From IMG/VR virus record IMGVR_UViG_2534681900_000010: a stretch of DNA of 33,600 nt, one strand, 5' to 3'. Shown in pieces: positions 6,523-33,600 of the stretch. Numbering within the stretch: the stretch's first letter is position 1; each line of letters begins with the position of its first letter. The notes beneath the pieces were generated by a model. It worked only from the letters and a program-made list of their open reading frames with translations. It did not search any database and had not been told where the DNA came from. The position numbers and the translations under genes are program-made. The stretch is from a virus (taxonomy: Duplodnaviria; Heunggongvirae; Uroviricota; Caudoviricetes).

Positions 6523-7569
6523 ATGGCGGTAAAAGTTGTTGATCTTTTTTGCGGTGCTGGCGGTTTAACGCACGGCTTACATTTGGCCGGATTGGACGTT
6601 GTCGCAGGCATTGATTTAGAAGGTGAGTGTCGTGTTGCATACGAAAGCAATAATGATGCACTTTTTATTGAAAAAGATATATCTCTGGTGACAAAAGATG
6701 AAATCGAAAATCTTTTTGAAGGGGCAAGTGTTAAAGTATTGGCCGGATGTGCACCTTGTCAGCCATTTTCTAAATATACTCAGGGAAAAGATAAAAAAAA
6801 TGATAAAAAGTGGCCGTTATTATATGAGTTTGAACGTTTAATAAAAGACACGAAACCAGAAATAGTTACAATGGAAAACGTTCCTGATGTGACAAAACAT
6901 TCTGTCTATGATGATTTTTATAATACCTTAATAGCATTGGGTTATTATGTTTGGGCAAATAAGATTGAATGTGTAGATTTTGAGGTTCCGCAAAACAGAG
7001 TGAGGCATGTATTACTCGCATCTAAATTTGCGCCGATTTCTCTGATGAAACCACAAACATCGGTAAAGCTGACAGTTAGGGATTGCATTGGTAATTTACC
7101 TTCGATTGAAGCGGGACAAGCAGATCCAAAAGACCCTCTCCATAAGGCGAGTAGATTGAGTGAAATTAATCTCAAACGTATTCTACATTCAAAACCGGGG
7201 GGGACATGGAGGGATTGGCCTGCTGAATTAATCGCTTCATGTCATGCCAAGAAAAGTGGGCAGGGATATGCCAGTGTTTATGGTCGTATGTCTTGGGATA
7301 AACCGAGTCCAACGATAACTACACTTTGTTATGGTTTTGGTAATGGACGTTTTGGTCATCCCGAGCAGCATCGTGCAATCTCACTTAGGGAAGCAGCATT
7401 ACTTCAAACGTTTCCTGTTACATATTCATTTACCCAACCGGGCGAGCCGATCAAAATGAAAAATGTCGGGCGTATGATAGGTAATGCTGTTCCTGTAAAC
7501 TTAGGTAAAGCGATTGGTCTTTCAATAGTACATCATTTGAAAGAGTTTCACCCCGCCGCTCTTAAATAA
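6523..7569 (+). CDS. DNA (cytosine-5)-methyltransferase
   Basis: All canonical C5-MTase motifs are present in order: DLFCGAGG (motif I, AdoMet), GCAPCQPFS (motif IV, catalytic Cys), TMENVPDV (motif VI), VPQNRVRHVLL (motif VIII), MIGNAVPVNLGKAIG (motif X). Visibly AT-rich relative to the phage backbone. Confidence 0.9.
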   Translation: MAVKVVDLFCGAGGLTHGLHLAGLDVVAGIDLEGECRVAYESNNDALFIEKDISLVTKDEIENLFEGASVKVLAGCAPCQPFSKYTQGKDKKNDKKWPLLYEFERLIKDTKPEIVTMENVPDVTKHSVYDDFYNTLIALGYYVWANKIECVDFEVPQNRVRHVLLASKFAPISLMKPQTSVKLTVRDCIGNLPSIEAGQADPKDPLHKASRLSEINLKRILHSKPGGTWRDWPAELIASCHAKKSGQGYASVYGRMSWDKPSPTITTLCYGFGNGRFGHPEQHRAISLREAALLQTFPVTYSFTQPGEPIKMKNVGRMIGNAVPVNLGKAIGLSIVHHLKEFHPAALK

Positions 7570-8267
7570 GCCTGAGTATCAAGATAAGTTTGTATATTTT
7601 CAAGGATGCAGTTGAGATAATGAAAAACTTCATCCTTCATTTCTGTTAGTGTATCAATAGATGTATCTCTGCCTTTGTTTCTAAATGATTCAGAACCATG
7701 AGCAAGGTCGTTTCTGGCCTTTTTTATTGGAAGTAAATTGCAACCATTTCGCGTTATTTCTGAATCTGTATCTGCTGAGAAGCCATATTTTTCAGCGACT
7801 TCTCTAATTTTTCTAGCGTCAACATTTCCAGAAAATAACGGATTTTTATTTGATTGGATAAGTTTTTTGTGAGCGTTTAGCCACTCTTTAAATATAACTT
7901 TTGCAATGTTCCCTTGTGAGAAATCTATTTTCCCATTTGGTGATTGTAAACTATGAAATGCTACTCTTGTAAGGTTTTCATTTACAGTGTCTGCACATAA
8001 TGATTCATTAGACATTAAAACATTATGAATGTCTTCTATTGCATTGGAAATGGTTGCTTCAATGAGATTGTACAATATAATAAATGCATTAGCCTTTAAA
8101 ATATGAGTCATATCAATATCAATGGGTTGTTGTATAGGCGCATCGCTTGTATTCTCTTTATAGACTAGAGATGGTTTTTTGTTTATTAGTAACTGAATGA
8201 ATGAGAAGTATTCATTAATATCTTGCATTCTTTCTTGGAAAAGAATTTTACTTGTCATCTCCTCCAT
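7548..8267 (-). CDS. HEPN-like predicted RNase (239 aa), second gene of the DUF262 operon
   Basis: Rx4H motif in KKARNDLAHGSESF near the C-terminal third. Start ATG is 10 nt downstream of the DUF262 gene stop; its 3' end overlaps the convergent MTase by 22 bp. AT-rich. Confidence 0.6.
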   Translation of the reverse strand: MEEMTSKILFQERMQDINEYFSFIQLLINKKPSLVYKENTSDAPIQQPIDIDMTHILKANAFIILYNLIEATISNAIEDIHNVLMSNESLCADTVNENLTRVAFHSLQSPNGKIDFSQGNIAKVIFKEWLNAHKKLIQSNKNPLFSGNVDARKIREVAEKYGFSADTDSEITRNGCNLLPIKKARNDLAHGSESFRNKGRDTSIDTLTEMKDEVFHYLNCILENIQTYLDTQAYLRAAG

Positions 8268-8277
8268 TTACTTGGCC

Positions 8278-9423
8278 TCACTCCATATTTTCATCTTCAT
8301 TTTCATCTTCGTCGACAATATTTTCTGGAATGTCTTTCCCAAGCAACTTGTTTTTTACATATTCAATGCGTGCTTTAACTTTGGGTTTAGAGTTGCTGGC
8401 ATCTGAACGTGTGTGCGTGATAAACTCTTTCGAGTTGATCCAGTCATCAATATTTTTAGGAACTAAATTGGGTTCTTCCTCTAGTGCTAATGTTGCACCG
8501 ACGGCAAGAGCTTCGAAACGAATCCTAGGAACAGTGGTGGCGTTTTTCACCTTTCTGAAACCATTTGGGAAATGTGTATTAATGAATTGGCTCATTTTAT
8601 GAAATTTTTCCGCCAGCATAGCTGCGTTTTCATCTGTATATTCGGCATTTTTACGTTTTAAATAGGTTGTAAGAAATTCATCAACGCTTTTTCTGAAATC
8701 AAGATATTCTTCAGTGTAGGCAAAGTAGCGTAGTGCCAATTCTGGATATTCAGAGCGACGTTTTCTTGCATCTCCCAAAGGACAGATGCTATGAAATAGA
8801 GGATCTTCGGAAATTTCATTGATAAATGCAAGGAATGGCCCATCATGGCTACCTTGCCGTTGTTCCATTGTTGTTAGTTTTTTTCCGCCAGTATTCAGAC
8901 GGTCAAAAATTTCCCTTCTTGTCTCTTCGTCACAATGTTCTGTAAGTTCAATCATTCGAATAGTTTTTCTATCAAAACGTAGGCGACGGGGAGTACTGAA
9001 ATCAGAATATTTAAAACCATTGGCTGTGACTAATTTCTGCAGGCCTTCAAGAGTTAGTTTGTTATTGGTAAATTGGTGTAGGGTTCTTATTCGTTGGCTA
9101 CCGTCAACAATTTCAAGTCTACCTTCATTTTCACCTGAACCAATATCGGCAACGAATATGTAAGGTATAGGAAGATTTAAAAGCAGAGATTCAATGAAAC
9201 GGGATTTTTGCTTGTTGTTCCAGATAAACTCCCTTTGGTAGTCAGGTATAAAAAGCTCTGCCTCATCTTCTTCAAGACCATTCTGAAATTTGTCCACAAT
9301 AACACTTATCGGGAACTCACGTATTTCATGGTCAGTGATTTTTTGCATTTCAACTATGCTTTGATCTAAAAGCTCCTTTTCTTCTTTAGTTTTTGGGGTA
9401 TGTTCTGCTTTTTTTCTCGCCAT
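8278..9423 (-). CDS. DUF262 (ParB/GmrSD-N-like) domain protein (381 aa)
   Basis: N-terminal region ...FIPDYQREFIWNNKQKSRFIESLLLNLPIPYIFVADIGSGENEGRLEIVDGSQRIRTLHQF contains the DGxQR signature of DUF262. Acidic C-terminal tail (DEDENEDENME). RBS AGGAT about 10 nt upstream. AT-rich. Confidence 0.7.
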   Translation of the reverse strand: MARKKAEHTPKTKEEKELLDQSIVEMQKITDHEIREFPISVIVDKFQNGLEEDEAELFIPDYQREFIWNNKQKSRFIESLLLNLPIPYIFVADIGSGENEGRLEIVDGSQRIRTLHQFTNNKLTLEGLQKLVTANGFKYSDFSTPRRLRFDRKTIRMIELTEHCDEETRREIFDRLNTGGKKLTTMEQRQGSHDGPFLAFINEISEDPLFHSICPLGDARKRRSEYPELALRYFAYTEEYLDFRKSVDEFLTTYLKRKNAEYTDENAAMLAEKFHKMSQFINTHFPNGFRKVKNATTVPRIRFEALAVGATLALEEEPNLVPKNIDDWINSKEFITHTRSDASNSKPKVKARIEYVKNKLLGKDIPENIVDEDENEDENME

Positions 9424-18050: not shown

Positions 18051-18480
18051 TGCCGTCACGGTGCTGAAAACTAACCCCGATATGCTGCGGATATTCGTGG
18101 ATAACGGGAGTATTGCCTCCACACTGGCGACGTCGCTGTCATTCGAAAAGCGTTACACGCTCAATGTCATTGTGACCGACTTTACCGGTAATTTTGACCT
18201 GCTCATCGTGCCGGTGCTGGCGTGGCTGCGGGAAAATCAGCCCGACATCATGACCACCGACGAAGGCCAGAAAAAGGGCTTCACGTTTTATGCGGACATC
18301 AACAATGACAGCAGCTTTGATATCAGTATCAGCCTGATGCTGACCGAGCGCACGCTGGTCAGTGAGGTTGAAGGTGCGCTGCATGTGAAGAATATCCCGG
18401 AACCCCCGCCGCCGGAGCCGGTCACCCGCCCGGTGGAGCTTTATATCAATGGTGAACTGGTGAGCAAGTGGGATGAATGA
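18013..18480 (+). CDS. R: Tail completion protein R
   Basis: 155 aa; position and size as recalled for P2 gpR. Confidence 0.85.
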   Translation: MLKPDSLRRALTDAVTVLKTNPDMLRIFVDNGSIASTLATSLSFEKRYTLNVIVTDFTGNFDLLIVPVLAWLRENQPDIMTTDEGQKKGFTFYADINNDSSFDISISLMLTERTLVSEVEGALHVKNIPEPPPPEPVTRPVELYINGELVSKWDE

Positions 18481-18925
18481 GTTTAAGCGTTTTGAAGACC
18501 GGCTGACCGGACTTATTGAATCGCTGTCACCGTCAGGGCGTCGGCGACTGAGTGCCGAACTGGCGAAACGTCTGCGGCAGAGTCAGCAGCGCCGGGTGAT
18601 GGCACAGAAAGCCCCGGACGGCACACCCTACGCACCACGCCAGCAGCAGAGCGCCAGAAAAAAGACCGGTCGTGTTAAGCGAAAAATGTTTGCGAAACTT
18701 ATCACCAGTCGTTTTTTGCATATCCGCGCCAGCCCGGAACAGGCATCAATGGAATTTTACGGCGGGAAGTCACCGAAAATCGCCAGTGTGCATCAGTTTG
18801 GTCTGTCGGAAGAAAACCGGAAAGACGGTAAGAAAATTGATTATCCGGCGCGCCCTCTGCTCGGCTTCACCGGTGAGGATGTGCAGATGATTGAAGAGAT
18901 TATCCTGTCTCACCTCGACCGTTAG
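18473..18925 (+). CDS. S: Tail completion protein S
   Basis: 150 aa; position and size as recalled for P2 gpS; overlaps the R stop. Confidence 0.85.
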   Translation: MNEFKRFEDRLTGLIESLSPSGRRRLSAELAKRLRQSQQRRVMAQKAPDGTPYAPRQQQSARKKTGRVKRKMFAKLITSRFLHIRASPEQASMEFYGGKSPKIASVHQFGLSEENRKDGKKIDYPARPLLGFTGEDVQMIEEIILSHLDR

Positions 18926-19633: not shown

Positions 19634-19977
19634 CAGCACGTTATCTCGGAATGAATCGCAGTGATGGCCTGACGGTCACTGACCTTGAGCATATCAGCCA
19701 GAGTATCGGCGATATCCTGCGCACGCCGGTCGGCTCACGGGTGATGCGTCGTGATTACGGCTCGTTGCTGGCGTCAATGATTGACCAGCCGCAGACCCCG
19801 GCGCTTGAGTTGCAGATTAAGGTCGCCTGTTACATGGCGGTGCTGAAATGGGAACCCCGCGTCACCCTGTCATCCGTTACCACGGCGCGCAGCTTTGACG
19901 GGCGAATGACGGTCACGTTAACCGGCCAGCACAACGACACCGGCCAGCCACTTTCATTAACCATCCCTGTGAGTTGA
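19630..19977 (+). CDS. W: Baseplate wedge protein (gp25-like)
   Basis: 115 aa; size and position as recalled for P2 gpW. Confidence 0.85.
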   Translation: MTARYLGMNRSDGLTVTDLEHISQSIGDILRTPVGSRVMRRDYGSLLASMIDQPQTPALELQIKVACYMAVLKWEPRVTLSSVTTARSFDGRMTVTLTGQHNDTGQPLSLTIPVS

Positions 19978-21423: not shown

Positions 21424-24183
21424 ATGAGCACGAAATTTAAAACCGTTATCACTACTGCCGGAGCCGCAAAGCTGGCAGCCGCCACTGTCCCCGGCGGGAA
21501 AAAAGTAAACCTGTCTGCAATGGCCGTGGGTGACGGTAATGGCAAATTGCCGGTGCCGGATGCCGGTCAGACGAAACTGGTGCATGAGGTCTGGCGTCAC
21601 GCTCTGAATAAAGTCAGCGTGGATAACAAGAATAAAAACTATATCGTGGCTGAACTGGTTGTACCGCCCGAAGTGGGCGGCTTCTGGATGCGTGAGCTTG
21701 GTCTGTATGACGATGCCGGAACACTGATTGCGGTATCCAACATGGCAGAAAGCTATAAGCCAGAACTGGCTGAAGGCTCCGGACGTGCGCAGACCTGCCG
21801 CATGGTTATTATTCTCAGCAACGTGGCGTCCGTTGAGCTGAGTATTGATGCCAGCACGGTGATGGCGACGCAGGATTACGTCGATGACAAAATCGCAGAG
21901 CATGAGCAGTCCCGCCGCCATCCTGACGCCACGCTGACAGAAAAAGGTTTTACTCAGTTAAGCAGTGCAACAAACAGCACCAGTGAAAAGCTGGCGGCAA
22001 CGCCAAAAGCGGTCAAGGCAGCAAATGACAACGCAAATTCACGTCTGGCGAAAAATCAGAACGGTGCAGATATCCAGGATAAATCAGTTTTTCTGGACAA
22101 TGTTGGCGTTACCAGCCTGACGTTTATGAAAAACAATGGCGAAATGCCGCTTGATGCTGATCTGAATACATTTGGTCCCGTTAAGGCTTATCTGGGGATC
22201 TGGTCTAAAGCTACCTCAACTAACGCAACACTGGAGAAAAATTTCCCGGAAGATAATGCTGTCGGTGTGCTTGAGGTTTTTGCTGCCGGCAATTTTGCAG
22301 GTACGCAACGCTTTACCACAAGAGACGGCAATGTATACATGCGTAAACTCGCCAATAAGTGGAATGGCACTGATGGTCCGTGGGGCGTATGGCGTCACAC
22401 TCAATCAGCTACCCGCCCTTTGAGTACGACTATAGACCTGAATACGCTTGGAGCCGCCGAACATCTTGGTTTATGGCGTAACAGTAGCTCGGCTATAGCT
22501 TCATATGAACGCAATTATCCAGAGGAAGGCGGCTTTGCTCAGGGGACGCTTGAGATCCTCGAAGGCGGGAATTATGGAAGAACGCAACGTTATACCACTC
22601 GCCGTGGAAATATGTATGTCCGCTGCCTTGCGGCAAGCTGGGATGCATCAAATCCGCAGTGGGAACCGTGGTTAAGAGTCGGTCATCAGTCAGAGAGTCG
22701 TTATTACGAAGGTGATTTGAATGATGTAACCTCACCAGGTATTTACAGCGTTACAGGTAAAGCGACCAACGGTCCAGTACTGGACGGAAACGGCGTGACT
22801 GTACTCGGCATTCTGGAAGTGTTGAGGCGGTTTGATGGTGTTAATGTATGGCAGCGTTATACAACTGCCGGAACAGGTACAACCCTTAAAGGCCGCACCT
22901 TTGAGCGCGTCTTTACCGGCAGCTCATGGAGCGAATGGCGGGAAGTCTACACCTCGTATTCACTTCCCCTGAATCTGGGTATCGGCGGTGCTGTGGCAAA
23001 GCTCACCAGCCTGGACTGGCAGACCTACGATTTTGTGCCGGGCAGTCTGATAACCGTTAGGCTGGATAATATGACCAATATTCCCGACGGTATGGACTGG
23101 GGCGTCATTGATGGCAACCTGATAAACATCGCAGTTGGTCCGAGTGATGATTCCGGTACGGGGCGCTCAATGCATGTATGGCGCAGCACTGTAAGTAAAG
23201 CGAACTACCGATTTTTTATGGTGCGTATTTCAGGAAATCCGGGAAGCCGCACGATCACAGCAAGACGAGTACCAATCATTGACGAAGCCCAGACATGGGG
23301 CGCGAAACAGACATTCAGTGCTGGCCTTTCTGGTGAACTGTCCGGCAATGCGGCGACAGCAACAAAGCTGAAAACAGCCCGTAAAATTAATAACGTTTCG
23401 TTTGATGGAACATCAGATATTAACCTGACGCCGAAAAATATTGGTGCATTTGCTTCAGGAAAAACAGGAGACACCGTTGCGAATGATAAAGCCGTTGGGT
23501 GGAACTGGAGTAGCGGAGCCTATAACGCAACTACTGGTGGGGCATCAACGTTAATTCTTCATTTTAATATCGGTGAAGGAAGTTGTCCCGCCGCCCAGTT
23601 CCGCGTTAATTATAAGAACGGCGGTATTTTTTATCGTTCTGCTCGTGACGGTTACGGATTCGAGGCTGACTGGTCTGAGTTTTATACCACAACGCGAAAA
23701 CCTACAGCGGGAGATGTCGGTGCACTGCCGTTATCTGGTGGTCAATTGAATGGTGCTCTGGGTATAGGAACATCCAGTGCTCTTGGCGGTAATTCGATTG
23801 TTTTGGGTGATAATGACACGGGCTTTAAACAAAATGGTGATGGTAATCTGGATGTTTATGCTAATAGCGTCCATATTATGCGCTTTGTCTCGGGAAGTAT
23901 TCAAAGTAATAAAACCATAAATATTACGGGGCGTGTTAATCCCTCGGATTACGGTAACTTTGATTCCCGCTATGTCCGGGATATCCGGCTTGGTGGTGCT
24001 GCCACATACAAACCTGCGAACAATGGCATGACATGGACACATCAGGCACCGTCCGGGTGTGTATATTCCGGCATTATTGTTCAGGATACCGGCTCAAACT
24101 CTGCCGATAACATTGGTGGTGTATATTACAGGCCGGTTCAGAAATACATTAACGGGACATGGTATAACGTGGCGCAGGTATAA
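21424..24183 (+). CDS. H: Tail fibre protein (enlarged relative to P2 H)
   Basis: 919 aa. The N-terminal part is a conserved baseplate-attachment region, followed by tandem repeats and the ATATKLKTARKINNVSFDGTSDINLTPKNIGAF tail-fibre motif. P2 H is recalled as about 670 aa. Confidence 0.9.
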   Translation: MSTKFKTVITTAGAAKLAAATVPGGKKVNLSAMAVGDGNGKLPVPDAGQTKLVHEVWRHALNKVSVDNKNKNYIVAELVVPPEVGGFWMRELGLYDDAGTLIAVSNMAESYKPELAEGSGRAQTCRMVIILSNVASVELSIDASTVMATQDYVDDKIAEHEQSRRHPDATLTEKGFTQLSSATNSTSEKLAATPKAVKAANDNANSRLAKNQNGADIQDKSVFLDNVGVTSLTFMKNNGEMPLDADLNTFGPVKAYLGIWSKATSTNATLEKNFPEDNAVGVLEVFAAGNFAGTQRFTTRDGNVYMRKLANKWNGTDGPWGVWRHTQSATRPLSTTIDLNTLGAAEHLGLWRNSSSAIASYERNYPEEGGFAQGTLEILEGGNYGRTQRYTTRRGNMYVRCLAASWDASNPQWEPWLRVGHQSESRYYEGDLNDVTSPGIYSVTGKATNGPVLDGNGVTVLGILEVLRRFDGVNVWQRYTTAGTGTTLKGRTFERVFTGSSWSEWREVYTSYSLPLNLGIGGAVAKLTSLDWQTYDFVPGSLITVRLDNMTNIPDGMDWGVIDGNLINIAVGPSDDSGTGRSMHVWRSTVSKANYRFFMVRISGNPGSRTITARRVPIIDEAQTWGAKQTFSAGLSGELSGNAATATKLKTARKINNVSFDGTSDINLTPKNIGAFASGKTGDTVANDKAVGWNWSSGAYNATTGGASTLILHFNIGEGSCPAAQFRVNYKNGGIFYRSARDGYGFEADWSEFYTTTRKPTAGDVGALPLSGGQLNGALGIGTSSALGGNSIVLGDNDTGFKQNGDGNLDVYANSVHIMRFVSGSIQSNKTINITGRVNPSDYGNFDSRYVRDIRLGGAATYKPANNGMTWTHQAPSGCVYSGIIVQDTGSNSADNIGGVYYRPVQKYINGTWYNVAQV
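22159..22960 (+). repeat. Three tandem ~92-aa coding repeats inside tail fibre gene H
   Basis: Repeat units start at 22159 (DLNTFGPVKAYLGIW...), 22435 (DLNTLGAAEHLGLW...) and 22714 (DLNDVTSPGIYSV...). Each carries G.LE(V/I)...QR(F/Y)TT..G..Y.R...W..W. Periods are 276 and 279 nt. Confidence 0.7.
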
Positions 24184-24935: not shown

Positions 24936-25529
24936 ATGTTTACTAAGCGACGATTAAAAAATATTAACTGGGAGGCAAGTTCAGTGATTCTTGCTATGGT
25001 TCTCTTTGTTGGAAATATATTTTATACAAATCATCGTGATGATATAAGCATGGAGGCTGAGAGGGACAGTATCAGAACAATGTTTGCATATGAAATCGCT
25101 AATAACCATCGCGCTCTCACTTTTCTTGATAAAACGAGATATATTGGCTTTGACGAAAATTCGGAGCATTTTGTTGGCGAGCCTTTTGCCATTAATGTCA
25201 AATCATTAGGGGGGCCTCGCTTACAGATTGCATTAAACCAGAGTGATAAAGTGTTTAAATCCTACTTCAGCGAATTAAGTAAGCTTGATAAAGAGGATGT
25301 TACTCTTCTTATGGACTATTACCATGAGCAAAGCATCCTGCTGGAGCGTGTAAAATCTACGTTACAGAAGATGAAAAGTGGTAATGATATTAAAGTTGAT
25401 ATTGATGGTTACTTATTAGAAGAACACTTCATGAATGAGCTTAATCTTTCTAATATTTTGCTTAAACGCTATAGCCATTTGTTGTCACAACACGCCAAAG
25501 AACATAAAACAAAAGATTTACATAATTGA
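24936..25529 (+). CDS. Hypothetical membrane-anchored protein (197 aa) at the Z/fun accessory locus
   Basis: AT-rich ORF between G and FI. RBS AAGGTG 6 nt upstream. N-terminal hydrophobic segment SSVILAMVLFVGNIFY after a basic MFTKRRLK start. No recognisable catalytic motif. Confidence 0.6.
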   Translation: MFTKRRLKNINWEASSVILAMVLFVGNIFYTNHRDDISMEAERDSIRTMFAYEIANNHRALTFLDKTRYIGFDENSEHFVGEPFAINVKSLGGPRLQIALNQSDKVFKSYFSELSKLDKEDVTLLMDYYHEQSILLERVKSTLQKMKSGNDIKVDIDGYLLEEHFMNELNLSNILLKRYSHLLSQHAKEHKTKDLHN

Positions 25530-27061: not shown

Positions 27062-27580
27062 ATGGCAATGCCGCGCAAACTCAAGTTAATGAACGTCTTT
27101 CTGAACGGCTACAGCTATCAGGGCGTTGCAAAGTCCGTCACGCTGCCAAAACTGACCCGTAAGCTCGAAAACTATCGCGGTGCGGGGATGAACGGCAGCG
27201 CACCGGTAGACCTCGGCCTTGATGACGATGCGCTGTCAATGGAGTGGTCGCTCGGTGGCTTCCCGGATTCGGTTATCTGGGAGCTTTACGCCGCAACCGG
27301 TGTGGATGCCGTGCCGATTCGTTTTGCAGGCTCTTACCAGCGCGACGATACCGGCGAAACGGTGGCCGTCGAAGTGGTCATGCGTGGACGTCAGAAAGAA
27401 ATCGACACCGGCGAGGGTAAACAGGGAGAAGACACCGAGTCGAAAATCTCCGTGGTCTGCACCTATTTCCGGCTGACGATGGACGGTAAGGAGCTGGTCG
27501 AAATCGACACCATCAACATGATTGAGAAGGTGAACGGCGTCGACCGGCTGGAGCAACACCGCCGCAATATCGGCCTGTGA
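27062..27580 (+). CDS. FII: Tail tube protein
   Basis: 172 aa directly after the sheath gene. Confidence 0.9.
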   Translation: MAMPRKLKLMNVFLNGYSYQGVAKSVTLPKLTRKLENYRGAGMNGSAPVDLGLDDDALSMEWSLGGFPDSVIWELYAATGVDAVPIRFAGSYQRDDTGETVAVEVVMRGRQKEIDTGEGKQGEDTESKISVVCTYFRLTMDGKELVEIDTINMIEKVNGVDRLEQHRRNIGL

Positions 27581-27636: not shown

Positions 27637-27912
27637 ATGAACAAAGAAAATGTGATTACCCTGGACAATCCGGTCAAGCGTGGTGAGCAGGTTATCGAAC
27701 AGGTCACGCTGATGAAACCTAATGCCGGGACGCTGCGCGGTGTCAGTCTGGCTGCGGTCGCAAACTCCGAAGTCGATGCACTGATTAAGGTGCTGCCGCG
27801 CATGACGGCACCGATGCTGACCGAGCAGGAGGTCGCCGCGCTGGAACTGCCTGACCTTGTGGCGCTGGCCGGTAAGGTGGTCGGTTTTTTGTCTCCGAAC
27901 TCGGTGCAGTGA
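27637..27912 (+). CDS. E: Tail assembly chaperone E
   Basis: 91 aa preceding the tape-measure gene; contains the slippery site near its 3' end. Confidence 0.85.
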   Translation: MNKENVITLDNPVKRGEQVIEQVTLMKPNAGTLRGVSLAAVANSEVDALIKVLPRMTAPMLTEQEVAALELPDLVALAGKVVGFLSPNSVQ

Positions 27913-28064
27913 CGTTTCCGAAAAATCTGTCGGTCGATGACCTGATGGCAGATGTGGCAGTGATATTTCACTGGCCGCCATCAGAACTGTATCCCATGAG
28001 CCTGACCGAACTCATCACATGGCGCGAAAAGGCGCTCCGGCGAAGCGGAAACACGAATGAGTAA
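27637..28064 (+). CDS. Tail assembly chaperone E+E' (programmed -1 frameshift product)
   Basis: Slippery heptamer-like GGTTTTTTG at 27883-27891. The -1 frame stays open to TAA at 28062-28064, overlapping the T start. This matches the conserved E/E' arrangement of P2-like phages. Confidence 0.7.
27883..27891 (+). other. Programmed -1 ribosomal frameshift slippery site
   Basis: GGT TTT TTG in the E frame; T6 run at 27885-27890. Confidence 0.7.
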
Positions 28065-32161: not shown

Positions 32162-32242
32162 TGCTTTTATTTTATCTATTTGTTTTATAAGGATAAATTA
32201 AATAAAATGGCACCATCAACAAAACCGGAAGAGGTGCTCGCG

Positions 32243-32461
32243 ATGTTTCATTGTCCTTTATGCCAGCATGCCGCACATGCGCGTACAAGCCGCTATATCA
32301 CTGACACGACAAAAGAGCGTTATCATCAGTGCCAGAACGTGAATTGCAGTGCCACGTTCATCACTTATGAGTCGGTACAGCGATACATCGTGAAGCCGGG
32401 AGAAGTCCACGCCGTAAGGCCGCACCCGTTGCCGTCAGGGCAGCAAATTATGTGGATGTGA
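32243..32461 (+). CDS. ogr: Late gene transcriptional activator Ogr (zinc finger)
   Basis: 72-aa product MFHCPLCQHAAHARTSRYITDTTKERYHQCQNVNCSATF... with a CxxC...CxxxxxC zinc-binding arrangement, recalled as P2 Ogr-like. RBS GGAAGAGG upstream of the ATG at 32243. Confidence 0.85.
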   Translation: MFHCPLCQHAAHARTSRYITDTTKERYHQCQNVNCSATFITYESVQRYIVKPGEVHAVRPHPLPSGQQIMWM

Positions 32462-32471
32462 TCACAAAAAT

Positions 32472-32498
32472 AGCCCCTCAGTTGAGGGGCTTTATTTA
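32472..32498 (+). terminator. Rho-independent terminator after ogr
   Basis: AGCCCCTC-agtt-GAGGGGCT hairpin followed by TTATTTAT. Confidence 0.7.
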
Positions 32499-32589
32499 TG
32501 GTCGATGTGGACGCTATGTGGACAGTGGTTGATATAAATCCATTTATATCATCAGGTTAGGTGCTTTTTTGTGACACCATCCCTGTCTT

Positions 32590-32618
32590 CCCCCACATGA
32601 TGTGGGGGTTTTTTTTAT
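32590..32618 (+). terminator. Strong intrinsic terminator hairpin at the host junction (possible att-associated)
   Basis: CCCCCACAT-g-ATGTGGGGG palindrome followed by a T10 run, between the prophage end and fieF. Confidence 0.6.
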
Positions 32619-32697
32619 CCTCAATTTGCCTGCTGCTTAATGCATTGCAGATGATTTGCTTCCGTTATACTACCGTCAGTTGATAGCGGGAGTATTT

Positions 32698-33600
32698 ATG
32701 AATCAATCTTATGGACGGCTGGTCAGTCGGGCGGCGATTGCTGCGACGGCGATGGCTTCGCTGCTATTGCTGATTAAAATTTTTGCATGGTGGTATACCG
32801 GGTCGGTGAGTATTCTCGCCGCGCTGGTGGATTCGCTGGTGGATATCGGCGCGTCGTTGACGAATTTACTGGTGGTGCGATATTCCCTGCAACCTGCCGA
32901 CGATAATCACTCGTTTGGTCACGGTAAAGCTGAGTCCCTCGCGGCGCTGGCGCAAAGTATGTTTATCTCCGGTTCGGCACTATTCCTGTTTTTGACGGGT
33001 ATTCAACATCTGGTATCTCCAACACCGATGACAGATCCAGGCGTCGGGGTTATCGTGACAATTGTGGCGCTAATTTGTACGATTATCCTTGTCTCGTTTC
33101 AGCGTTGGGTGGTGCGCCGGACGCAAAGCCAGGCGGTGCGGGCTGATATGCTACATTACCAGTCTGATGTTATGATGAACGGCGCAATTCTGCTGGCGCT
33201 GGGGTTGTCCTGGTACGGCTGGCATCGCGCCGATGCTCTGTTTGCATTGGGGATCGGCATCTATATTTTATATAGCGCGTTACGCATGGGATATGAGGCG
33301 GTACAGTCATTACTGGATCGCGCATTGCCTGATGAGGAACGGCAAGAAATTATTGATATCGTGACTTCCTGGCCGGGTGTTAGCGGCGCTCACGATCTTC
33401 GCACGCGGCAGTCAGGGCCGACCCGCTTTATTCAGATTCATTTGGAAATGGAAGACTCTCTGCCTTTGGTTCAGGCACATATGGTGGCGGATCAGGTAGA
33501 GCAGGCTATTTTACGGCGTTTTCCGGGATCGGATGTGATTATCCATCAGGACCCCTGTTCCGTCGTACCCAGGGAGGGTAAACGGTCTATGCTTTCATAA
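32698..33600 (+). CDS. fieF: Cation-efflux pump FieF (CDF family ferrous-iron/zinc exporter), host gene
   Basis: 300-aa product [49 protein letters not shown]... recalled as E. coli FieF/YiiP. ORF-track ORF trimmed to the ATG at 32698; stop at 33598-33600. Confidence 0.9.

Follow-up and report, generated by a model that had tools for sequence, protein, structure and literature searches.

Organization of the E/E' locus

The window analysed here is the whole stretch of 33,600 nucleotides of IMG/VR virus record IMGVR_UViG_2534681900_000010 (Caudoviricetes). The region of interest sits between the tube gene FII and the tape-measure gene T (Table 1). FII, which has the same length as P2 FII, is the upstream neighbour that defines the chaperone position. 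The neighbours in the tail module were identified by Pfam as the sheath (FI), the tube (FII), the tape measure (T), gpU and gpD. The rest of the window corresponds to a complete P2-type prophage comprising the integrase, cox, gpA and the genes from portal to ogr. A host fieF-like gene follows the prophage in the window.

Table 1. Coordinates of the features of the E/E' region in the window
Feature	Position	Strand	Basis or remark
FII tail tube protein gene	27062..27580	+	Pfam PF04985 (Phage_tube), E = 2.3e-60
Gene E, zero-frame tail assembly chaperone, 91 aa	27637..27912	+	ORF, translation
Shine-Dalgarno-like element AGGTGGTC, candidate frameshift stimulator	27875..27882	+	Predicted pairing to the 16S rRNA 3' end
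Slippery heptamer T_TTT_TTG	27885..27891	+	In E frame; site of the -1 shift
E' coding segment, -1 frame	27891..28064	+	57 codons and TAA 28062-28064
Composite E+E', 142 aa	27637..28064	+	27637-27891 joined to 27891-28064
Gene T, tape measure protein, 815 aa	28057..30504	+	Pfam PF10145, E = 2.9e-44

Gene E terminates at a TGA codon (27910-27912) and its product matches Pfam family PF10109 (Phage_TAC_7, E = 2.6e-12), whose description reads 'tail assembly chaperone proteins E, or 41 or 14'. The peptide encoded in the -1 frame matches a second family, PF06528 (Phage_P2_GpE, E = 2.1e-22). The -1 frame stays open between 27876 and 28061 and so reaches back 37 nt into E; positions 27891-27912 are dual-coded as the start of E' and the end of E. 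An earlier sequence-only reading had proposed a programmed -1 frameshift at this place and, in agreement with it, no stop codon interrupts the -1 frame between 27891 and 28061. Its count of 58 codons is correct if the TAA is included, since there are 57 sense codons from GTC 27891 onward. When base 27891 is read twice, as under tandem slippage, the joined E+E' translates into a protein with a two-domain Pfam match and the length of P2 E+E', 142 aa (PMC3091744). The end of E' overlaps the first 8 nt of T, ATGAGTAA (28057-28064). The overlap with T was thus rightly noticed, but the TAA covers codons 2-3 of T and not, as had been stated, the start codon, which is the ATG at 28057. T is homologous to the annotated T of P2.

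The 9-mer GGTTTTTTG, previously given as the slippery site, is present at 27883-27891. However, the E-frame codons are GGT TTT TTG and the functional unit is therefore the X_XXY_YYZ heptamer T_TTT_TTG rather than the 9-mer. The heptamer consists of E codons 84-85 (Phe-Leu) and the last base of Gly83. It is separated from the E stop by 18 nt and not by 20 nt as first counted. A distance of 20 nt is the one published between the T-run and a GUG codon (PMC3931495), and this GUG is located at 27909 in the window. The window contains 39 in-frame X_XXY_YYZ heptamers, distributed across 34 genes. The E heptamer has the longest -1 continuation of them (57 codons) and is the sole one to be located at the 3' end of a gene and to run into the next gene. 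Over all in-frame positions, the -1 continuation has a median of 8 codons and 57 codons are reached by 2.5% of positions. The E/E' overlap exceeds chance.

Relation to P2 and conservation among phages

Several sequenced Peduovirus and Yersinia P2-like phages match a 521-nt region of the window with 100% identity. The genes are the same in P2, from which the window differs by point substitutions only, 10 in 428 nt (97.7% identity), resulting in two amino-acid differences (E N29S and E' S87A, relative to P2) of which one falls within the 91 aa of E. P2 has the identical TTTTTTG heptamer, followed after the same 18 nt by the E stop, and an E' of likewise 57 codons with the same ATGAGTAA overlap into T; AAGGTGGTCGG stands upstream in both, and the products do not differ in size (91 and 142 aa). 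By contrast with P2, the copy in the window is that of a prophage beside a fieF-like host gene, with other cargo genes elsewhere. At homologous coordinates, the records of P2 and L-413C list E, T and a joined CDS for E+E' that bears the label '-1 frameshift', and this, with the alignment, bears out the identification with the P2 frameshift made in the sequence-only reading. The P2 record additionally carries a 'site of -1 translational frameshift' feature adjoining the heptamer. Relative to the P2 counterpart of the heptamer G, this mark is displaced by one base in the 3' direction, and it corresponds to 27892 in the window. A literal join at 27892 gives Phe instead of Val at the junction, and the offset of the misc_feature was treated as an annotation convention.

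The tail module is 94.1% identical to that of P2 at the nucleotide level over 6.26 kb, from FI position 349 onward. The ORF lengths of FI, FII, E, T, U and D equal those of P2, which is consistent with an intact module and agrees with the functional tail assembly that had been supposed. According to PMC3091744, P2 undergoes a -1 frameshift at TTTTTTG, a single start giving rise to the 91-aa E and the 142-aa E+E', and downstream hairpins are absent from P2 and from three Burkholderia relatives. Christie et al. 2002, as relayed in PMC3931495, reported for E' the lack of a ribosome binding site, a 37-nt extension back into E and an overlap with T. The window agrees with all three of these points. 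E' is reportedly essential in P2, and the fusion is said to be made at roughly 10%. The P2-type E/E+E' frameshift is already known and the copy present here is ordinary.

The same organization was found well beyond the close relatives of P2. A tblastn search with E+E' retrieved 418 phage records, and among the 60 matches listed of these 418, 57 were in two pieces, down to about 37% identity, the pieces being read as the probable counterparts of the two frames. In a panel of 16 loci from annotated phages, TTTTTTG occurs in frame and at the same place in 13, and the three most distant members carry TTTTTTC (Vibrio MAR), AAATTTT (Xuanwuvirus P88) and GGGAAAG (Mannheimia PHL101). The annotated-phage panel and the IMG/VR viral contigs searched with five queries together provided 343 loci. 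The automatic screen of these loci required a canonical heptamer in frame and, after it, a -1 ORF of no fewer than 40 codons that contains the conserved AD[IVLM] motif. Such an arrangement was detected in 340 loci and one truncated locus also fits, so that the heptamer and the frame relation are kept in 341 of 343 loci, in line with the conservation that the sequence-only reading had announced. In the remaining two loci, E and E' are fused in one frame; one of them (L097) has a T8 run in place of T7, i.e. one extra T. TTTTTTG is present in 312 of the 340 loci, the others having different canonical heptamers. Grouping of the loci below 80% amino-acid identity gives 49 lineages, of which 39 have TTTTTTG, five TTTTTTC, three GGGAAAG, and one each AAATTTT and TTTTTTA. 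These exchanges of the heptamer at a fixed position and phase favour ribosomal slippage; they are not predicted by transcriptional slippage or by independent initiation of E'.

Sequences flanking the heptamer

Frameshift stimulators were searched for on both sides of the heptamer. On the 3' side, the 59 nt that follow it fold no better than shuffled sequences (z = +0.69). The consensus fold of 24 diverged sequences reaches -5.3 kcal/mol, and none of its pairs is compensatory. A downstream hairpin, at about 50 nt (z = -2.2), was rejected, being without covariation and inside the conserved E' coding core. The Rfam search returned no family match, only sub-threshold chance hits. No 3' structure is therefore conserved, as the literature also has it.

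On the 5' side, a Shine-Dalgarno (SD)-like core, AGGTG, occupies 27875-27879, and the heptamer begins 5 nt after it. The duplex of AGGTGGTC with the 3' end of 16S rRNA, GAUCACCUCCUUA, has a predicted energy of between -12.2 kcal/mol, in a 9-nt window, and -14.0 kcal/mol, in a 16-nt segment. This pairing belongs to the top 0.08% of + strand positions and is stronger than that of the ribosome binding sites of 10 of the 11 late genes checked. Across the 49 lineages, the mean pairing is -7.4 kcal/mol for a 9-nt window starting 11-12 nt before the heptamer, the background elsewhere in E being -1.8 +/- 1.1 with a minimum of -4.1.

Codon conservation points to the same segment. Among 51 non-redundant relatives with the geometry of the window, zero synonymous variation was observed at only seven of 88 comparable codons, and three of these seven cluster at the site (GTG 27877, GGT 27883 and TTT 27886). 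They are flanked by TTG 27889, with one variant, and by AAG 27874, which is kept in 46/49 and variant in 3/49. All three synonymous positions of the heptamer are invariant or nearly so in these relatives. The synonymous sites 27876 and 27879 are nearly frozen and GTG is found in 51/51, which is to be read as a statistic across related lineages. Where Lys is replaced by Glu at the element, the AG of the motif is retained.

The pairing was compared with that of synonymous recodings, in which the six upstream codons were replaced 500 times according to each locus's own codon usage. The recoded sequences gave -5.77 +/- 0.37 against an observed -8.75, a value reached by 0/500 recodings. The corresponding z = -8, with |z| < 2 at six control positions, and the Fisher test associating the element with TTTTTTG (32/39 lineages against 2/10 for the other heptamers; p = 4.6e-4) are inflated because the lineages are phylogenetically related. 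The published AGGKG definition applies to 34/49 lineages, in comparison to a mean of 4.4/49 (9%) and a maximum of 20 at control positions. This definition is that of Sharma et al. (PMC4066793), for whom AGGKG lying 6-17 nt ahead of the motif's second base is an experimentally stimulatory SD. With a spacing of 6 to the second base of the heptamer, the AGGTG of the window falls at the very edge of this interval. The Atkins review gives stimulatory spacings of 9-14 nt for -1 shifts (Larsen 1994, via PMC5009743) and 3 nt for +1 shifts. The raw spacing between element and heptamer is 5 nt here; counted from the same 16S residue in our own pairing alignment, it amounts to about 8 nt, versus 10 in dnaX, which is close to the classical range yet short of it.

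The heptamer itself was assayed in E. coli reporters. UUUUUUG gave 0.118% frameshifting by itself, 0.247% when combined with the IS911 stimulators and 0.765% when combined with the IS3 pseudoknot, and UUUUUUC with the IS3 pseudoknot gave 7.6% (PMC4066793 supplement). The range of 0.12-0.77% indicates that the dominant heptamer of the family is intrinsically weak. UUUUUUG lies outside the patterns that were screened genome-wide by Sharma et al. (PMC4066793). It is this weakness of U_UUU_UUG, together with the lack of a conserved downstream structure, that leads to the proposal of an SD-like stimulator. From the pairing and codon-choice data, the element would, on balance, act as a 5' frameshift stimulator. 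The stronger proposition is doubtful, namely that it would be a previously undescribed, family-wide internal SD-like stimulator (AGGUG, 5 nt upstream) needed for the P2-family E/E' frameshift. No description of an SD-like element for P2 was found in the accessible literature; one may stand in Christie 2002 or Xu 2004.

Alternative explanations

Three other origins of the overlap were weighed against ribosomal frameshifting. That the overlap is an open frame arisen by chance, or that the prophage is defective and its chaperone gene has decayed by a frameshift mutation, has a practically negligible probability. It can invoke the general fact of prophage decay and nothing more, whereas the -1 peptide fits a curated Pfam family (E = 2e-22), the same arrangement is found in plaque-forming phages including P2 and in 341/343 loci, and the E heptamer is the only one in the window with a long -1 continuation. 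Alternatively, E' could be a separate small gene expressed from its own start, GTG 27909 or ATG 27945, without any frameshift. Both codons are indeed present in the -1 frame of the window, an ATG stands just before the conserved AD[IV] motif in 31/49 lineages, and in several phage records E' appears as a CDS of its own of about 40 aa, named 'E'' or 'GpE family'. However, the SD pairing of the two candidate starts is weak (-5.4 and -5.3 kcal/mol), and the family consensus at 27909-27911 is GTA, which is not a start codon. No ATG, GTG or TTG exists between the heptamer and the conserved motif in 10/49 lineages, and only 2/49 have a start with an SD-like sequence before it. A separate gene would also leave unexplained the frozen in-frame heptamer and the constant -1 frame abutting E, and the literature presents E' as devoid of a ribosome binding site and made as an extension of E (PMC3091744, PMC3931495). 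Independent initiation of E' was rejected on the missing starts and SDs across the 49 lineages and is considered very improbable. Marginally less so, but still highly unlikely, is a stutter of RNA polymerase that would add a U on the T6 run, normal translation then yielding E+E'. A homopolymer run does stand at the site, T6 in the window and T7 in some relatives, the one-extra-T natural variant L097 is an in-frame fusion, and the predicted junction ..GFFV.. is only one residue apart from the ..GFLV.. of tandem slippage. Nevertheless, a review places bacterial transcriptional slippage at runs of nine A or T, and six is short of this. Lineages without a T-run carry GGGAAAG or AAATTTT, which are classical tandem-tRNA slippage heptamers and not runs on which a polymerase slips. 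Furthermore, the seventh base of the heptamer, G, is conserved, and the conserved phase of X_XXY_YYZ relative to the E frame matters to ribosomes only.

The role of AGGTG is more debatable than the frameshift itself, to which no observation runs counter. It is quite plausible that the element is not a stimulator, being conserved otherwise or even dampening the shift, and that the heptamer alone gives the low level required. The other reasons for its presence would be a Lys/Glu-Val amino-acid or codon preference, a folding pause or shared ancestry. The spacing of the element is below the classical 9-14 nt, an AGGTG-type element is absent from 15/49 lineages, and the statistics overstate the independence of related lineages. 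Moreover, a strong stimulator may not be needed, since the lambda-type chaperone frameshift works at a product ratio of 30:1 (PMC5009743) and two HK97-type chaperone genes were measured at 6-7%. On the other hand, codon choice at the site goes beyond the amino-acid constraint (z = -8, with six flat controls), and the AG retained upon Lys-to-Glu replacement speaks in the same direction. The element accompanies the weak TTTTTTG rather than the stronger heptamers, UUUUUUG alone gives about 0.1% in E. coli reporters (PMC4066793), and AGGKG at 6 nt or more belongs to the experimentally stimulatory set (PMC4066793). The balance of these arguments leans slightly to stimulation by the SD-like element.

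Proposed mechanism and significance

Almost certainly, the region belongs to a P2-type (Peduovirus) prophage and codes for its two tail assembly chaperones, E and E+E', the latter being produced by -1 frameshifting. In the proposed mechanism, most ribosomes would terminate at TGA 27910 after making E (91 aa). A minority would slip by -1 nt with UUU (27886-88) in the P site and UUG (27889-91) in the A site. The slipped ribosomes would then read the 57 codons of the -1 frame and synthesize E+E' (142 aa), ending 8 nt inside T. The junction would be Leu-Val, or Phe-Val if the P-site tRNA alone slips or if RNA polymerase stutters. AGGUG(G/A)UC, located 5 nt 5' of the heptamer, may pair with the anti-SD of the elongating ribosome, and this pairing may hold or strain the ribosome during decoding of the slippery codons, so that shifts become frequent enough to be useful. 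The lambda G/GT analogy and the Pfam families suggest that the shared E domain binds the tape-measure protein and that the E' domain recruits the tube protein FII. By the same analogy, a fixed low E+E':E ratio, set by the frameshift, would be needed for correct tail assembly, and neither E nor E+E' would stay in the virion. For these chaperones, a sequence search against solved structures gave no match at E <= 1.

The locus confirms that this prophage has the P2 E/E+E' recoding site known from textbooks, within a tail module that is apparently intact. It is also of use for annotation, as many database records call E' a separate small gene or omit it. If the SD-like element is a stimulator, it would compensate for the weak U_UUU_UUG and stand in for the missing downstream RNA structure, and would explain how a useful level of frameshifting is obtained from such a heptamer. 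The locus would then be a tail-chaperone case of -1 frameshifting stimulated by rRNA-mRNA pairing at an unusually short spacing, and the known spacing range of SD-stimulated -1 shifts would be extended.

Comparison with other frameshifting systems

Tail-chaperone frameshifting was called universal in long-tailed phages by the sequence-only reading. This is too strong and has to be softened: the frameshift is widespread, yet PMC10885494 states that it is absent from some tailed-phage genomes. The tail assembly chaperones of T4-like phages belong to the same functional class and also serve contractile-tailed phages. The title of Vladimirov, Gautam, Davidson 2022, cited in PMC10885494, suggests that another mechanism operates in T4-like phages, which implies that the frameshift would not be universal.

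The closest counterpart in organization is phage lambda G/GT, an overlapping ORF pair at the same tube-to-tape-measure position (Levin 1993; Xu, Hendrix, Duda 2004, 2013, 2014, via PMC5009743). There, too, ribosomes shift by -1 at a heptamer close to the first ORF's end and thereby make a minor fusion at a fixed ratio. In lambda, the common domain binds the tape measure and the frameshift domain attaches to the tail tube subunit; the two proteins are made at about 30:1 and are both absent from the virion (PMC5009743). The lambda heptamer G_GGA_AAG is used by some distant E/E' relatives, whereas U_UUU_UUG dominates in the P2 type. Contrary to the lambda tail, the P2 tail is contractile, and the partner is the tube protein inside the sheath. 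The conserved upstream SD-like element is also a feature of the P2 family. PMC3931495 states that lambda gpG/gpT and P2 E/E' have no sequence similarity, and the likeness is one of organization, not of demonstrated homology.

The E/E' site further resembles dnaX and the insertion sequences IS911/IS3, in which an X_XXY_YYZ heptamer follows a sequence complementary to 16S rRNA as it does here (Larsen 1994; Prere 2011; Sharma 2014, PMC4066793). It differs from dnaX and IS911 by its short spacing, by the absence of a downstream hairpin or pseudoknot and by a heptamer that is weak in E. coli, and the stimulatory role of its SD-like element is that of a candidate.

Sequence context and annotation of the E/E' frameshift

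A Shine-Dalgarno-like element (window 27875-27882) is located 5 nt 5' of the slippery heptamer in E, which encodes a tail assembly chaperone, and is conserved among related E/E' loci (L002-L343). It accompanies the weak heptamer TTTTTTG (32 of 39 lineages) more often than other heptamers (2 of 10). No description of such an element upstream of the E/E' heptamer was found in the accessible literature. An in-frame TTTTTTG is also present at 18712-18718, inside another late gene (18473-18925). The -1 frame that follows it is open for 37 codons, the second longest in the window, and this combination of heptamer and open frame is probably due to chance.

E and E' form a single continuous ORF in only two of the 343 loci compared. 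The first, L097 (IMGVR_UViG_2734481921_000002), carries at about 848-855 a run of eight T where its relatives have seven; the additional T is due either to a sequencing error in the homopolymer or to a genuine mutation that fused the two genes. The second, L333 (IMGVR_UViG_3300028898_000145), is a distant relative that is devoid of any heptamer.

In the P2 record NC_001895, the feature 'site of -1 frameshift' is placed at position 19685, corresponding to window 27892, i.e. one base 3' of the heptamer. A literal join at this position yields Phe instead of Val as the junction residue. In many GenBank phage records, E' appears as a separate CDS of ~40 aa, as a 'hypothetical protein' or is unannotated, and the tape-measure gene T is labelled 'smc chromosome partition protein' in some of them.

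Accessory genes and prophage right end

Features of the accessory regions and of the prophage right end
Feature	Window position	Strand	Description
C5 cytosine DNA methylase	6523-7569	+	PF00145, 2e-54
HEPN MAE_28990-like protein	7548-8267	-	PF18737, 8e-18
GmrSD_N/DUF262 protein	8278-9423	-	PADLOC NsnA 1e-54, PD-T4-2_A 1e-34
Tail fibre gene H	21424-24183		919 aa; T4 gp37_C-like domain (PF12604) in C-terminal part
197-aa ORF	24936-25529		AT-rich; between tail-fibre assembly gene and FI
ogr	32180-32461		right end of prophage
Host cation-efflux (fieF-like) gene	32656-33600		incomplete, extends past window end

The right end of the prophage adjoins the host fieF-like gene (region 32461-33600) and attR should be situated within 32462-32655. 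A cargo region (6523-9423) occupies the hotspot between the replication gene A and the portal gene Q, the site of tin/old in P2. Its content looks like a PD-T4-2-type anti-phage system of two genes accompanied by a methylase. The slot of the 197-aa ORF, upstream of the sheath gene FI, is that of Z/fun in P2. Its product has no match in Pfam or PADLOC and its N-terminus appears hydrophobic when judged by eye; the ORF is possibly an uncharacterised moron or defence gene. Finally, because H contains a T4 gp37_C-like domain, the data suggest a host-range cassette unlike P2's own fibre.
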